Shown here piece by piece: positions 25,832 to 57,291 of a DNA stretch of 64,000 nt (within the stretch, counting starts at the first letter, position 1; every line of letters starts with the position of its first letter). Position numbers and translations under genes: made by a program. This DNA is from Candidatus Bipolaricaulota bacterium (GTDB taxonomy: Bacteria > Bipolaricaulota > Bipolaricaulia > M55B111), in contig JAGYME010000001.1 in the NCBI GenBank assembly GCA_018400715.1, positions 44,940 to 108,939 on the forward strand, read 5' to 3'. Below the pieces are notes generated by a model. It was given only the letters and a program-made list of their open reading frames with translations. It was not told the DNA's origin and searched no databases.

Positions 25832-27022
25832 ATGAATATTACGGCTACGAAGCTGAAGACGGTTATGTTGCTGGGGATGTTCTTTTTTTTGCTCGCTTGC
25901 TCCGCTACGGTTTTTGGTCAGTCCTCCGATGACGGTTGGGGGCCATACCTCACTGTCGGGAAGGGTCCTGCAATAGTGGTCAACTGGAAGACCGATAAAC
26001 AATGGGCGGGAGAGGTCTCCTACTCGGCCGCATCCCCGGGTCCGGATGAGGAGAGTTTCACGAAATTGGAGAGAGAAACCGGGCCGGTCCAATTTCATCA
26101 CGTGCTGTTAGACGACCTGAAGGGAGGGACCGAATACGAATACGAGGTAAAGGGAAGTGAGGGTCCGTCTTCATATTACTTCAGAAGCCTCTCGGATGAC
26201 CCTCAAGAATTTGCGTTCTTCGTCTACGGCGATAATCGGACTTGCGTACAGAGACACCGGATGCTCTCCATCTGGATGGCGATGGATAGCTGGGACCCGA
26301 CCTTCATATTTCATACGGGAGACCTGGTAGAGCGGCCCACTCCCTCACGCTGGGCGGACTTCTTTTGGGCGATTGAACCGTTTAGCCGGTCTACCCCGCT
26401 GGTGCCCGTGCTGGGAAATCACGAAATGTATCACGGGAGCTATTTTGATGCCTTCTCTCTACCGACCGAAGACGGCGTCTATAAGAGAGGGTGGTATTCG
26501 TTCGAATACGGCCCGGTAAACTTCGTAATCCTAGACTCGAACGTAAATGAAATTGGATTATCCAAGTTCCTAGAGCAGACGGAATGGCTTAAGCGGGAGC
26601 TGGAAGGTCAGACGAGGGAGTACACCGTAGTCTTCTTTCATCACCCGATTTACTCCTCCGGATACTCGTCAGGTGTGGATTCCGGGCTGGCCGAGAGTTG
26701 GGGGAGCCTGTTTGAGAAACACGACGTCGACCTCGTCTTCAACGGACACGTGCACGCCTACGAGCGGCTCGTCAAGGACGGGGTAACCTACGTCGTCACC
26801 GGGGGCGGGGGCGCCCCCACGGACAACATATCTTCCAGGCTTGATATCTCCAAGGCGGCCCAGGGAGACTCCCTCCATTACGTCAGGGTCTCCGTTACGG
26901 AAACGGGGTTGGAACTTGAGACGGTGGAGGTCGCCCGGGTAAATCGCGAAGGAGAGTCCGGTAGAGTTGGGTGCGACGCCGAACTGTCTGAAGGTAGGGC
27001 GATAATCGACGATAATTATTAG
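25832..27022 (+). CDS. secreted metallophosphoesterase (purple-acid-phosphatase-like)
   Basis: GGAGGAA RBS and signal peptide MNITATKLKTVMLLGMFFFLLACSA. GDNR, HTGDLVE, GNHE, GHVHAYER metallophosphatase motifs. The TAG stop is completed by the first bases of the MITE. Confidence 0.85.
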   Translation: MNITATKLKTVMLLGMFFFLLACSATVFGQSSDDGWGPYLTVGKGPAIVVNWKTDKQWAGEVSYSAASPGPDEESFTKLERETGPVQFHHVLLDDLKGGTEYEYEVKGSEGPSSYYFRSLSDDPQEFAFFVYGDNRTCVQRHRMLSIWMAMDSWDPTFIFHTGDLVERPTPSRWADFFWAIEPFSRSTPLVPVLGNHEMYHGSYFDAFSLPTEDGVYKRGWYSFEYGPVNFVILDSNVNEIGLSKFLEQTEWLKRELEGQTREYTVVFFHHPIYSSGYSSGVDSGLAESWGSLFEKHDVDLVFNGHVHAYERLVKDGVTYVVTGGGGAPTDNISSRLDISKAAQGDSLHYVRVSVTETGLELETVEVARVNREGESGRVGCDAELSEGRAIIDDNY

Positions 27023-27125
27023 GGACGGTGCTTGACATTTTGACAATTTGGGCAAGTCCCTTTGCTAATTAATTCCCAATAGACCGGCTGTTTAGAATAA
27101 TGTCAAAATGTCAAGCACCGTCCCT
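27021..27125. mobile_element. MITE/REPIN-like element copy 1 (105 bp; 25-bp perfect TIRs AGGGACGGTGCTTGACATTTTGACA)
   Basis: Left end 27021-27045 equals the reverse complement of 27101-27125. The core is about 80% identical to copy 2. Confidence 0.9.
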
Positions 27126-38300: not shown

Positions 38301-38364
38301 CTTGATATGGCCTTTATTATGCCAACGAAGTCAGAAAATCTGAATTTCTTTAGGAGCGTTGAAC

Positions 38365-39171
38365 ATGGAGAATAAAGGAAAGAAGACAGCCCTGATCACC
38401 GGGGCGTCACGGGGAATTGGTTACGAGATAGCGAAGCTCGCTGCTCAGAACGGCTACAATTTGGCCATCGTGAGTCGCTCTCTGGAAAACCTCGTCTCCG
38501 TTAAAAAGAAAATCGAGAGGGAGTACGGCGTCAACGTTGAGCCAATCGCGGGTGACTTAAGTTACACCGAGACGGCAGAGAGGATATTTGACCGCTTGAG
38601 CGGTGCGGATATGTGGGTTGATCTACTCGTAAACAACGCGGGTAGGGGTCAAATGGGGGAGTTCATCGAGACGGACTGGGAAGTAGACCGGGAGATGATG
38701 CGGTTAAACATGGACGCGGTGGTTTACCTGACCGACCTGTTCCTGCCACAGATGATAGAGAGGGGACAGGGAAAGATCTTAAACGTTTCATCGCTGGCCG
38801 CATTTGCTCCGGGTCCCCTCATGGCCCTCTATTACGCGACAAAGGCCTTCGTTCAGAATTTTTCCGAAGGACTGGCCGAGGAGGTCGCAGATAAGGGGGC
38901 GACCGTGACCGCCCTTTCTCCTGGACCGGTGGACACGGGGTTCGAGATAAAAGGAGTAAAGCCATCTGAGAACGGAAACAAATCTGTCAGGGTGTCCCCT
39001 GAGTTGGCCGCAAAAGTCGGATACAACGGCGTCATGAGCGGCAAGCGAGTCGTCGTCCCCGGCGGGGCGGTCTCAGTTGCCCCACAGCTGGCCCGCCTCT
39101 TACCGCGGAGGACAGTAAGCAGCTTCATCAGTTGGCTAAACAACCGCCTATTGTACAGGGACGGTGCTTGA
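38365..39171 (+). CDS. SDR-family oxidoreductase; last four codons and stop lie inside MITE copy 2
   Basis: TGASRGIG and NNAG motifs, S...YxxxK. AGGAG 8 nt before the ATG at 38365. The stop TGA at 39169-39171 is inside the TIR. Confidence 0.8.
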   Translation: MENKGKKTALITGASRGIGYEIAKLAAQNGYNLAIVSRSLENLVSVKKKIEREYGVNVEPIAGDLSYTETAERIFDRLSGADMWVDLLVNNAGRGQMGEFIETDWEVDREMMRLNMDAVVYLTDLFLPQMIERGQGKILNVSSLAAFAPGPLMALYYATKAFVQNFSEGLAEEVADKGATVTALSPGPVDTGFEIKGVKPSENGNKSVRVSPELAAKVGYNGVMSGKRVVVPGGAVSVAPQLARLLPRRTVSSFISWLNNRLLYRDGA

Positions 39172-39261
39172 CATTTTGACAATTTTGTCAAGTTCATTTG
39201 CTATGTAATTCCCTATAGGCCGTCTGTTTCGGATAATGTCAAAATGTCAAGCACCGTCCCT
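39157..39261. mobile_element. MITE/REPIN-like element copy 2 (105 bp)
   Basis: TIRs 39157-39181 and 39237-39261 are perfect inverted copies; same orientation and a similar core to copy 1. Confidence 0.9.
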
Positions 39262-39322
39262 CCATTAACTAGTTAATGGACTGTCGACTTAGCATGTCAC
39301 ATAGTGTTATTTGTGATATGAC

Positions 39323-40195
39323 ATGCGGACGGCAAGAAGAACATATAAGGGTGCCTTCCATCACGTAATGAACCGTGGTCACGAAGGCAAGATGATATTT
39401 TCTTCCAGAGGCCTCAAACGAAAGTTCCTAAAGTTCCTGGTCGATCAGGCCGACAAGACGAAGATTAGGGTATTTGCTTATTGCCTTATGAACAATCATT
39501 ATCATTTGGTCCTACAGAATAGTTCCGGGAAACTTTCTAACTTTATGCGCAATCTAAACGGATCCTTTGGGACGACGTATAGGAATAGGGAGGGAGGCAA
39601 AGGTTATGTCTTTCAGAACCGCTTCAAATCCACGCTTATCACGACAGATCATTATCTCTCGGCTGTAATAGCATATACGTTGTTGAATCCTCTTCGAGCT
39701 GGTCTGGTAGAAGATCCGTATAATTACGAATGGTCGAGTATCAATGAATACTTCTCTAACGACAAGAAGACCGTCACCGATAGGGAATTTGTTGAAAATC
39801 TCTTCATGTCCCAGGACGGGCTGAGAAGACATCTATCACATTGGGTTGGGAGAGAACTACCCGTGAAAGACACCGATCAAGGCGAAGTGATCGGCGAAGA
39901 GAAGGGGCCGATCAGAAGGACGGGGATCATTGACAGGGCAAAAGAGGATGTGCAAAGATTTCCCAAGGTACAGGTTGTTATCGCCAGATTCGAAATGGAG
40001 AAAGGTGTCGAGTTGAGCGATATAGATCTCTCCAGCCACAATGGAAAGCGATTGAGGGCGGAGCTATTGGTTCGCCTCAAGGACGATGCCGGACTAACTT
40101 ATAGAGAGATCAGTGAAATGTCGATATTTGAAACTCTGAGTTATTCTTCTCTTGGGAAAATATATCAGCGAACGAAGAGAAGACTGGCAACGTAG
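39323..40195 (+). CDS. IS200/IS605-family HuH Y1 transposase (TnpA), REP-associated tyrosine transposase (RAYT)-like, 290 aa with C-terminal HTH-like extension
   Basis: YHVMNRGHEG...AYCLMNNHYHLVLQ (HuH motif)...YVFQNRFKS...YTLLNPLRAGLV...YEWSS (catalytic Tyr region). Flanked by MITE copies 2 and 3. Confidence 0.8.
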   Translation: MRTARRTYKGAFHHVMNRGHEGKMIFSSRGLKRKFLKFLVDQADKTKIRVFAYCLMNNHYHLVLQNSSGKLSNFMRNLNGSFGTTYRNREGGKGYVFQNRFKSTLITTDHYLSAVIAYTLLNPLRAGLVEDPYNYEWSSINEYFSNDKKTVTDREFVENLFMSQDGLRRHLSHWVGRELPVKDTDQGEVIGEEKGPIRRTGIIDRAKEDVQRFPKVQVVIARFEMEKGVELSDIDLSSHNGKRLRAELLVRLKDDAGLTYREISEMSIFETLSYSSLGKIYQRTKRRLAT

Positions 40196-40331
40196 AATGG
40201 GTTAGGTAAAACAAAAAGCTCGTCCTCCTCCACATATCCAATTTGTTTTTTCCTTTGATTTATTCCGCGGTCACCCATATAAAATATCGTTAACTAGATA
40301 TGAAAATTACAATCCTAAAGGGTGAAAAATA

Positions 40332-40625
40332 ATGAAGAATAATGTTGAAGATAATGACCAGGGCTTACAGCTGGCCTCCCCCGTGGTAGTTTCCTGTCGT
40401 GATGAAAACGGAATGACAATGCGCTGGTAGTTGCATACGCGTCCAACTGTAGTTTTGACCCCCCCAATGTTAATTGTTGGCATCGTCCCTTCTAGATATT
40501 CATATCATATGGTAAAAGAAACTGGTGCCTACGTGGTTAACCTGGTATCTGAAGACCTCAAGGAAGAATTTGATTATCTCGGGCACAATAGCGGCCGAGA
40601 TGTGTTTAGTAGGGACGGGGCTTGA
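40332..40625 (+). pseudogene. flavin-reductase-like (FMN-binding split-barrel) gene remnant; in-frame TAG at 40428 and truncated by MITE copy 3
   Basis: SPVVVSCRDENGMTMRW-stop-LHTRPTVVLTPPMLIVGIVPSRYSYHMVKETGAYVVNLVSEDLKEEFDYLG resembles the N-terminal half of flavin reductases. The reading frame terminates ...RDGA* inside the TIR. Confidence 0.5.
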
Positions 40626-40715
40626 CAGTTTGACATTTCTAGCAACTCCCGTTGCTGTAAGCGTTTCGCTGTAATTCGACCGTAAAATATTGTCAAAATG
40701 TCAAGCCCCGTCCCT
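40611..40715. mobile_element. MITE/REPIN-like element copy 3 (105 bp; TIR variant GGGG on both arms)
   Basis: AGGGACGGGGCTTGACA...TGTCAAGCCCCGTCCCT; core unrelated to copies 1 and 2. Confidence 0.9.
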
Positions 40716-40723
40716 ACTTTTTC

Positions 40724-40751
40724 TTGACATTCTTCTAATCTGTGATATACT
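40724..40751 (+). promoter_or_regulatory. sigma70-type promoter TTGACA-16-TATACT upstream of the GntR-family gene
   Basis: Consensus -35 at 40724-40729 and -10 at 40746-40751, 9 bp past the MITE end. Confidence 0.55.
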
Positions 40752-40806
40752 ACAGTTGAAATGTAATATATCAACTCACCATTTTTCTTACATTTGCGTG
40801 ATACAT

Positions 40807-41451
40807 ATGGTACTTAACAAGCAGAGCCTGGCGGACCAAATATACCACGAAATTAGGGACCTGATAATTAACGTGGAGGTCGAGCCGGGCGAAAAAATCG
40901 ATGTCTCCGTTCTGGAGGAAAAATACGAAGTAAGTAGGGCACCGATCCGCGAAGCCTTAAACCGCCTGGCAAATCAGGGACTGGTTGAGGTACGTCCGAG
41001 GGTTGGTTATTTCGCCGTGGAACTCTTACCTAATCAAGTACGGGATATTTGTGAGCTGAGGAAACTCTTTGAGACGTACGCTCTCCAGCAGTCGGTCGAG
41101 GAGGTAGACAAGGACGACCTGAAAGAACTCCTTGAGGAGTCTCTTGAATTAAAACACGATGGACTGGACCCAAAGGAGCTTAGGTTCCGTTTTGACCAGA
41201 CGGATGAAAGGCTGCATAAGTTGATAATCACTCACGCCGACAACGAGCTGCTCGAGGAGTTTACCGAGCGGATCCATAACCTGATCGGCCTCACTAGACA
41301 CCTTAACGAGAGAATTCAGGAAGCGATTGACGAGCACGTTATCCTACTACGGGCGATGATCAATCGAAACAGTGAAAGGGCGAAAAAGGCGTTAAGCAAG
41401 CATCTAGATAACGTCGAGGAAGAAATTTTGAGGTCAATTAATTCCGGCTAG
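40807..41451 (+). CDS. GntR-family transcriptional regulator (FadR/FCD subfamily)
   Basis: N-terminal wHTH QIYHEIRDLIINVEVEPGEKIDVSVLEEKYEVSRAPIREALNRLANQGLVEVRPRVGYFV plus a helical FCD-type C-terminal domain. The ORF-track N-terminal extension is translated MITE sequence. Confidence 0.8.
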   Translation: MVLNKQSLADQIYHEIRDLIINVEVEPGEKIDVSVLEEKYEVSRAPIREALNRLANQGLVEVRPRVGYFAVELLPNQVRDICELRKLFETYALQQSVEEVDKDDLKELLEESLELKHDGLDPKELRFRFDQTDERLHKLIITHADNELLEEFTERIHNLIGLTRHLNERIQEAIDEHVILLRAMINRNSERAKKALSKHLDNVEEEILRSINSG

Positions 41452-57187: not shown

Positions 57188-57291
57188 AGGGACGGGGCTT
57201 GACATTTTGACAATATATCCAGGTTAATTTTACGGTAAGGGCGGCTGGTTGGCCTTCACAAAAAAATGTCAAAATGTCAAGCTCCGTCCCT
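57188..57291. mobile_element. MITE/REPIN-like element copy 4 (104 bp; one TIR mismatch)
   Basis: AGGGACGGGGCTTGACATTTTGACA ... TGTCAAAATGTCAAGCTCCGTCCCT. Preceded by a 15-bp tandem duplication ATTATAACAGGGACG. Confidence 0.85.

Follow-up and report, generated by a model that had tools for sequence, protein, structure and literature searches.

Introduction

Long terminal inverted repeats (TIRs) in place of repetitive extragenic palindromes (REPs) were found around genes resembling those of the REP-associated tyrosine transposases (RAYTs) by Di Nocera et al. (2013; PMC3733652), who named the proteins TIRYT and the units TIRtrons. These TIRs have a common GGGGWSAS motif, and the TIR families are moderately abundant and occur as singles, dimers and groups. 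Most TIRYTs were later equated with subclass 2.1 of the TnpA_Y1 proteins, which about 15% of the surveyed strains carry (Quentin et al., 2018; PMC6006769). In this subclass C-terminal helix-turn-helix (HTH) domains are found, some of them DnaA_C-like, and a serine motif has been described for subclasses 2.1, 2.2, 2.3 and 2.6. The TIR motif is unlike the DnaA box, and the role of the DnaA-like domain was left open (PMC6006769). No TIRYT experiments are reported in these two papers, where the name TIRYT is used. Here, we describe a locus of this kind from Candidatus Bipolaricaulota, located at positions 39157-40715 of a 64,000-nt stretch of contig JAGYME010000001.1, which was analyzed as a whole and is called the window in the following.

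The locus had been noticed in an earlier note, made from the letters alone, which compared it with REPIN-RAYT systems and suggested an undescribed RAYT/REPIN class. The observation itself is confirmed and its interpretation is partly supported. The locus is a new Bipolaricaulota member of the little-studied TIRYT/TIRtron kind, which has been known since 2013 (PMC3733652) and as subclass 2.1 since 2018 (PMC6006769), and not a new RAYT/REPIN class. We consider it probable that 39157-40715 is a TIRtron-type block, in which a TIRYT gene lies between two non-coding doublets of its own family and half of a flavin-reductase gene is carried as a passenger, and we propose a two-module mechanism for it.

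The TIRYT gene is bracketed by two hairpin-forming TIR doublets

The TIRYT gene (39323-40195, plus strand) encodes a Y1/HUH 'tyrosine transposase' of 290 aa whose C-terminus forms an HTH domain, and is the only TIRYT copy within the 64-kb window. It is preceded by TIR doublet 2 (39157-39261, arms 39157-39181 and 39237-39261 with a 55-nt loop), which ends 61 nt before the ATG, and is followed after 415 nt by TIR doublet 3 (40611-40715, arms 40611-40635 and 40691-40715). Two further doublets bring the number in the window to four, namely doublet 1 (27021-27125) between two convergent genes and doublet 4 (57188-57291) between two divergent genes; all four are intergenic and none is assigned to a strand. 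The arms are 25 nt long with a complementarity of 96-100%, 54-55 nt lie between the arms of each doublet, and TTGACAnTTTGACA is present in every arm. A 24-nt pattern of the window arm, GGGACGGKGCTTGACAKTTTGACA, occurs eight times, corresponding to the four doublets, where 0 occurrences are expected (100 shuffles). The open reading frame (ORF) with its HUH and YEWSS motifs, both spacings and the units of about 105 bp with 25-bp arms hold as they had first been reported.

Folded as single-stranded DNA, the four doublets form a 25-bp stem with -30 to -38 kcal/mol (z = -9 to -11). In doublet 3 a T-to-G change at arm position 9 is compensated by the complementary change in the opposite arm. Doublets 1 and 2 have loops with 89% identity, and the loops of doublets 3 and 4 are unrelated. 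That the loop of doublet 2 is trapped native intergenic DNA was rejected, as its similarity to the intergenic region of a relative is not significant (p = 0.65). A known RNA family was rejected as well, since Rfam gave zero matches across the whole window.

Two of the doublets reach into the ends of neighboring genes. The SDR gene (38359-39171) owes its final codons (RDGA) and its stop codon to the left arm of doublet 2, and doublet 1 shares its first two bases with the TAG stop of a gene that ends at 27022. The stretch that adjoins doublet 2 on the side of the TIRYT gene (39262-39279) is a perfect palindrome of 18 bp, CCATTAACTAGTTAATGG.

The window protein is closer to the TIRYTs than to classical RAYTs or IS200 TnpA

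The membership in Y1_Tnp that the earlier note expected was borne out by a Pfam search (30.1 bits against a cut-off of 23). With the RAYT profile, the NCBIfam equivalog REP_Tyr_transpos (NF047646), the protein reaches 64.2 bits and stays under the cut-off of 80. For a direct comparison by phmmer, the TIRYT and RAYT sequences from Additional file 5 of PMC3733652 served as reference set. The window protein matches the 12 main-group TIRYTs with E-values from 1.8e-30 (gbm_2474) to 1.2e-16, against 6.8e-13 for the best classical RAYT, and the E. coli RAYT is undetected with a single sequence. The WSS motif is invariant, and the C-terminal HTH fold is present as in the extensions of subgroup 2.1.2 (Bac_DnaA_C, HTH_23 and HTH_28-like). 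The outer tip of the arms, (G/A)GGGACGG, agrees with the published GGGGWSAS at 7/8 positions, with G for A at position 7, the published motif being common to many, not all, published TIRs. The gene lies between inverted arms, which here are entire doublets and in the homologues single arms about 20 nt from each gene end. Judged from the phmmer comparison, the window protein is closer to the TIRYTs (TnpA_Y1 subclass 2.1) than to classical RAYTs or IS200 TnpA.

The locus could also be seen as a classical REPIN-RAYT system, possibly of a new RAYT group, in which a domesticated single-copy RAYT recognizes REP hairpins and copies REP doublets. The layout is indeed the same, with hairpin-forming doublets on either side of a Y1 gene, the best match among solved structures is the E. 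coli RAYT, and in relatives one gene with many doublets is inherited vertically. In addition to the NCBIfam score below the cut-off, phmmer nevertheless favors TIRYTs over RAYTs by at least 17 orders of magnitude, and the 150-aa C-terminal extension is absent from RAYTs. Unlike a REP, a single arm has neither palindrome nor hairpin (in folding, single arms do not surpass their shuffles, z = 0.04 to 0.76), and no GTAG tag was found in the arms. What stands of the REPIN-RAYT layout is thus that the gene is bracketed by cognate hairpin-forming doublets of its family, whereas the arms are not REPs, and we regard a classical REPIN-RAYT system as improbable. The placement of the protein on a RAYT-like branch apart from IS200 TnpA is upheld; the length of 290 aa, the 25-nt TIRs and the single copy in the window speak against an IS200/IS605 element.

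Catalytic residues and fold of the protein

A database search retrieved 466 homologues of about 300 aa, whose source labels are 'transposase' or 'RayT' and whose named hosts include WOR-3, TA06, Aminicenantes and Elusimicrobia, among others. The best 120 of the 466 are 275-348 aa long and 44-53% identical to the window protein, except for P0001, the database entry that is 100% identical to it. In 52 aligned homologues H59, H61, Y111, Y118, N122, Y135, S138 and S139 are invariant. The HUH motif (H59-Y60-H61, 39497-39505, plus strand) lies within NNHYHLVLQ at aa 57-65. In a profile search of solved structures the best match was E. coli TnpA_REP (4ER8), with Y118 of the window protein (AYTLLNP; 39674-39676, plus strand) placed on the catalytic Y115, so that Y118 is the predicted catalytic tyrosine. 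The tyrosine had initially been sought in YEWSS (aa 135-139; 39725-39739, plus strand). Because Y118 aligns on Y115 of 4ER8, YEWSS is the conserved 'serine motif' that follows the core and not the site of the active tyrosine. The public gene call P0001 comprises 275 aa, and its start appears 15 codons late (39323-39367); the first 15 residues, MRTARRTYKGAFHHV, align with residues that are conserved in all homologues (R5, H13, H14).

The full-length AlphaFold (AF2) model has a pLDDT of 84.8, with residues 194-213 disordered. The N-terminal domain fold matches 4ER8 first and the TnpA proteins of IS608 and ISDra2 next. When the 79 residues of aa 212-290 (39956-40192, plus strand) were modelled alone, the pLDDT was 96.6, and the top Foldseek matches were DnaA domain IV (8btg, 3pvp, 1j1v), with TM 0.72-0.77 and a root-mean-square deviation of 2.3-2.5 over about 78 aa. 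As far as can be judged from the model, the last 80 aa adopt the fold of DnaA domain IV, in agreement with the HTH-like tail noticed at first. A link to DnaA at the sequence level was rejected, as neither Pfam in 52 members nor the profile search of PDB sequences gave anything relevant, and the fold comparison is what supports it. The last helix of this domain (aa 268-288; 40124-40186, plus strand) is the likely recognition helix.

Relatives carry a compact unit of arms and gene

A scan for exact arm matches in one genome per species resulted in 79 loci from WOR-3, Stahlbacteria, Aminicenantes, Omnitrophota, TA06 and unclassified metagenome-assembled genomes. In eight genome loci a plus arm and a minus arm lie about 965 bp apart and enclose nothing but a full-length homologue of the window protein. 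This canonical unit of about 990 bp consists of an arm, about 20 nt, the ORF (about 298 aa), about 20 nt and the inverted arm. A second sample of 36 loci was retrieved through the protein alone and is therefore unbiased with respect to the arms. Here also most full-length genes are flanked by inverted arms, and the same holds for the closest homologues of the window protein.

Besides the complete units, shorter derivatives were detected. At L027 (1320-1536) and L040 (7102-7485) the arms are 190 and 360 nt apart and just the last about 45 TIRYT codons are kept between them, which indicates that the short doublets are internal deletions of the 990-bp unit. The dispersed arms share the A/T variant of the unit in their own genome (five genomes). 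The richest genome, STB_17, contains one unit and at least 25 doublets. Their loops fall into subfamilies with 75-93% identity, which occur in both orientations, and the arms are perfect. The doublets are therefore copied as doublets, and their arms are constrained.

Taken as such, the doublets might be miniature inverted-repeat transposable elements (MITEs) of an unrelated, e.g., DDE, transposon that lie beside the Y1 gene by coincidence. Their 25-bp terminal inverted repeats are like those of classical MITEs, and a proximal arm is missing at the window gene. This explanation is barely credible, since arms of this type immediately border TIRYT homologues, and only these, in the eight genome loci and in most protein-retrieved loci, the deletion derivatives keep TIRYT codons, and the parent element encodes the Y1 protein alone. 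Furthermore, no target-site duplication is seen at 47 doublets.

The relatives also provide several single observations on the arms. At L082 and L083 (metagenome loci) two plus arms are located upstream and two minus arms downstream of one TIRYT gene, and these nested arms resemble the doublet-gene-doublet layout of the window. Perfect solo arms with no inverted partner within 260 nt are present at L020, L037, L039, L042, L059, L063 and L069 (WOR-3 Kmv43) and at other loci; in L037 and L069 an identical GC-rich hairpin, GCGGGGGAGATTCGTCTCCCCGC, follows the arm. At L071 (5262-5352, WOR-3 Kmv43) the outer arm end of a TIRYT unit is 'stuttered' (GGGGACGGGGGACGGTGCTTGGGGACGGGGGACGGTGCTTGACA), the tip being repeated several times, perhaps as a trace of cleavage and rejoining that took place there more than once. 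The flanks of the doublets show a weak AAG|GGGG...CCCC|CTT tendency and an occasional complementarity of up to 9 nt. In STB_17 the flanks of some doublets (L012, L035, L038, L067 and L076) are mutually complementary over 5-9 nt, e.g., TTAAAGG...CCTTTAA, which extends the hairpin by non-conserved bases and possibly reflects palindromic targets or variable element ends.

In relatives the unit diverges with its host and is rarely found on mobile replicons

In a scan for exact arm matches, one full-length unit was found per genome in the relatives, two complete chromosomes included, together with up to about 30 doublets. In three WOR-3 genomes the unit has a common location, with an MBL-fold gene on one side and an anti-sigma gene on the other. 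Among these genomes the TIRYT is 78% identical and the flanking genes are 75-79% identical, and the arms are 100% identical. Homologues were found in 14/72,556 plasmid records, none of them full length, and in one phage record. Carriage by plasmids or phages was rejected as an explanation, being rare and never involving a full-length protein with the HTH domain.

These data bear on the possibility that the element is an ordinary selfish insertion sequence, i.e., an unrecognized TIR-bearing Y1 family with MITEs that is spread horizontally and not domesticated. Such a family would account for a compact element of about 990 bp with TIRs and one ORF, for MITE-like deletion derivatives, for the absence of the block from a syntenic relative (see below), and for an arm that is near-identical across WOR-3, Stahlbacteria, Aminicenantes, Omnitrophota, TA06 and the window even though the proteins are only about 50% identical. 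It fits less well with one full-length unit per genome among exact arm matches, with the shared site and host-like divergence in the three WOR-3 genomes and with the rarity on plasmids and phages, and no identical doublet copies were seen in STB_17. We therefore hold a selfish insertion sequence to be unlikely, and prefer a TIRYT gene with its cognate doublets.

The arm consists of a conserved tip and two variable 8-bp repeats

For the analysis of the arms a set of 36 distinct arms was used, which were located by searching for the tip; the same tip had been found earlier in an independent de novo inverted-repeat search. In the 36 arms the outer tip GGGACGG, in most cases GGGGACGG, hardly varies and starts 44-46 nt before the start codon. 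It is followed by a variable spacer of 3 nt and by two tandem direct repeats of period 8, here called iterons. The period is 8 in 29/36 arms, and in 22/36 the two 8-mers match at 7 or more of the 8 positions, as compared to a mean of 0.3 and a maximum of 2 in shuffles. The 8-mers are lineage-specific: the window type is TTGACAtT, and other lineages have TTGAAAAT, TTGTAAAC, CTTGTTTT, GTGCGAGT, GTTCAAAC or ATAACAAT.

To relate the variable region of the arm to the protein, its divergence was compared with that of the protein in a sliding window. The correlation peaks at aa 268-288, the last helix of the HTH domain, with r = 0.55-0.57, and the next best window reaches 0.44. In a partial Mantel test controlling for the N-terminal domain the correlation is r = 0.52 (p = 2e-4). 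Because shared ancestry inflates correlations of this kind, it is the contrast within the protein that carries the co-variation argument.

Most lineages have a TATAAT-like box 16-17 nt past the first 8-mer, with its end 6-8 nt upstream of the start codon, and no Shine-Dalgarno sequence is present. Therefore, the left arm appears to hold the promoter of the gene, without room for a leader. In lineages where the 8-mer is poor as a -35 box, an extended -10 is often present.

Another possibility is that the protein no longer moves DNA. It would then be a DNA-binding regulator or nuclease with the arms as its operators, and the doublets would be hairpins selected by the host, such as terminators, mRNA stabilizers or protein-binding sites. 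This is in line with the promoter in the arm of homologues, with arms that remain 100% conserved where the flanking genes diverged by 22%, with the location of doublets 1 and 2 at the 3' ends of genes, which for doublet 1 are convergent, and with A or T runs in several flanks. A consensus scan of 38900-41000, however, found no promoter or terminator site within doublets 2 or 3, and Rfam has no match in the window. The invariant HUH motif and tyrosine in 52 homologues and the doublet subfamilies in both orientations also speak against it, as does the presence or absence of the block between lineages, with limits at the arm ends and a passenger gene fragment. A non-mobile regulator is thus quite improbable, and we keep to a TIRtron that would act on its own arms.

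The block is absent from a syntenic relative

The contig L160 from Logan has the gene order SdhA-SdhB-165-aa gene-SDR as in the window, and its SDR protein is 79% identical. In L160 the SDR stop codon is followed by about 72 nt and then by a match to window positions 40718-40752 (p < 0.0005), which is the GntR promoter after doublet 3. Therefore, the entire 1559-bp block 39157-40715 is absent from L160, and within a few nucleotides the limits of the absent block are the outer ends of the two doublets. The native C-terminus of the SDR protein in L160 is ...LLEE*, and the arm replaces this end in the window, leading to ...LLYRDGA*.

Between the TIRYT gene and doublet 3 a fragment of a flavin-reductase-like gene, its 5' half, is located at 40332-40625 (plus strand; Pfam Flavin_Reduct, E = 2.3e-10, profile positions 9-81 of 153). 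It contains an in-frame TAG at 40428-40430 and ends exactly at the left arm of doublet 3. The frame of this pseudogene continues into the arm as ...RDGA*. In the most economical reading, two arms can move anything that lies between them, in this case the gene and a piece of a previously interrupted gene.

A strong sigma-70-like promoter of a GntR/FCD regulator gene is found at 40724-40751 (TTGACA, 16 nt, TATACT; 11/12 matches, with TG). It begins 9 nt past doublet 3 and is conserved in L160. Its -35, TTGACATT, is the same as the arm 8-mer, which may or may not be a coincidence.

A proposed two-module model for end recognition

In the mechanism that we propose, the protein combines an N-terminal HUH/Y1 nuclease (H59, H61, Y118) with the C-terminal DnaA-domain-IV-like HTH. 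The HTH would dock on the iterons, be it in double-stranded DNA or in the stem of 25 bp of a single-stranded doublet, and would thereby bring the HUH domain into place for nicking and rejoining a single strand at the tip GGGGACGG or beside it. In this way doublets, or the DNA between two arms, would be moved in trans, probably in the single-stranded state that arises at the replication fork, as with other Y1 enzymes. The 105-bp doublets are the 990-bp unit minus the gene, and persist as a small dispersed population. In canonical units the first iteron would also serve as the -35 box of the leader-less promoter, and because of this overlap binding of the HTH would repress the transcription of its own gene.

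The data show the protein family and folds, the arm architecture, the co-variation, the deletion derivatives, the absence of the block from L160 and vertical inheritance in relatives; DNA binding, the cleavage site, mobilization and autoregulation are inferred. That a DnaA-IV-like HTH reads two lineage-specific 8-bp iterons and aims the HUH domain at GGGGACGG, as a re-targetable two-module end recognition in which the iterons are at the same time -35 box and means of autorepression, is a tentative possibility that we take seriously and would not yet call likely.

Several points weigh against this interpretation. The co-variation is confounded by shared ancestry, for which the scan within the protein controls in part. 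The Foldseek E-values for the C-terminal domain are weak (0.45-1.1), which is expected because the domain is so small, and Pfam Bac_DnaA_C matched in 0/52 members. For every TIRYT, binding and nick site are deduced from sequence. No target-site duplication or clean target motif was detected, and direct repeats do not flank the 47 doublets mentioned above. At the window locus, about 70 nt of the L160 intergenic DNA have no counterpart, so that the event was not a simple insertion, or the lineages diverged there afterwards.

The window copy is also atypical by itself. Its gene has neither canonical proximal arms nor the promoter of the homologues, and the gene flanks give no significant alignment with the arm. 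Degenerate proximal arms, for which a GGAC located 46 nt upstream of the ATG and a stretch similar to GGAGGACGAGC past the stop were considered, were rejected (p = 0.43 and 0.52 against shuffles). In the recognition helix the window protein has S where TTGACA-type relatives usually have K, and about 10 aa of the basic linker found in homologues are missing. Because of these two changes in the protein, the window copy may be decaying, and the active partner of the doublets could sit outside the window.

If the model is true, it would answer the question of 2018 on the role of the DnaA-like domain in TnpA_Y1 subclass 2.1 (PMC6006769). It might also explain why the TTGACA-type arm stays near-identical over at least six phyla at about 50% protein identity, as the arm would have to serve as a protein site and as a promoter at once. 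Moreover, it would connect domesticated transposases of the RAYT type with the way in which Rep proteins use iterons. With a conserved tip, a variable pair of 8-bp boxes and one co-varying helix, the locus and its relatives provide a compact and testable model of end recognition in a widespread class of proteins. For annotation it follows that the 'RayT' or 'transposase' calls of about 300 aa in candidate phyla belong to the TIRYT class, and that hairpin repeats of about 100 bp around such genes are derivatives of TIRYT units, which are able to rewrite gene ends as seen for the SDR C-terminus.

Comparison with known systems

The window locus shares with the TIRYT/TIRtron systems a RAYT-like Y1/HUH protein with a long C-terminal extension and long TIRs, not REPs, that flank the gene. 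In both, the TIR starts with a GGGG-rich motif, TIRs are dispersed as singles, dimers and groups, and some HTH domains are DnaA_C-like. In difference to these, the window tip is GGGGACGG, with its 7/8 match to GGGGWSAS, and the hosts of the window family are candidate phyla (Bipolaricaulota, WOR-3, Stahlbacteria and Aminicenantes). The published TIRYTs that were compared (216-238 aa) stop at a basic KRGRPRK tail, whereas the window family adds a domain of about 80 aa. Tandem 8-bp repeats, co-variation with the HTH and a promoter in the arm are described in neither PMC3733652 nor PMC6006769. As computational leads that go beyond this literature, the window family provides an arm built of two modules, which co-varies with the DnaA-like helix and itself contains a promoter.

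With REPIN-RAYT systems, which reportedly go back to Nunvar in 2010 and to Bertels and Rainey in 2011, the window family has in common a Y1/HUH gene flanked by cognate repeats, non-coding hairpin doublets of about 100 bp, and in relatives one gene with many doublets, vertical inheritance and gene-specific repeat variants. It differs in a repeat unit that is not palindromic and has no GTAG, in low copy numbers, with four doublets in the 64-kb window and about 30 recovered in the richest genome, and in a protein that is twice as long and outside the RAYT equivalog model. The TnpA proteins of the IS200/IS605 family (IS608, ISDra2) have the same HUH/Y1 fold and catalytic residues. Those elements have no TIRs but subterminal hairpins on one strand and are usually multi-copy, and their TnpA has about 130-150 aa and no HTH, whereas the window protein has 290 aa and is accompanied by 25-nt TIRs.

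For the C-terminal domain the closest comparison is DnaA domain IV on DnaA boxes. The modelled fold is alike, and the proposed targets are short repeated boxes in both cases. The boxes of the window family are, however, 8-mers such as TTGACAtT and not TTATNCACA, and no similarity at the sequence level was detected.

Rep-type HUH initiators act at origins that combine iterons with a nick site, such as Rep of geminiviruses and circoviruses, and Rep of adeno-associated virus (AAV) at the Rep-binding element and terminal resolution site (RBE/trs) of the hairpinned inverted terminal repeat. By analogy, the iterons of the TIRYT arm would correspond to the iterons beside the nick site of these systems: lineage-specific tandem repeats adjoin an invariant site and would be read by a specificity module, and as for AAV Rep the repeats sit in hairpin-forming terminal repeats. 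In contrast to the Rep proteins, the window system has no helicase domain, and its proposed specificity module is a separate DnaA-IV-like HTH.

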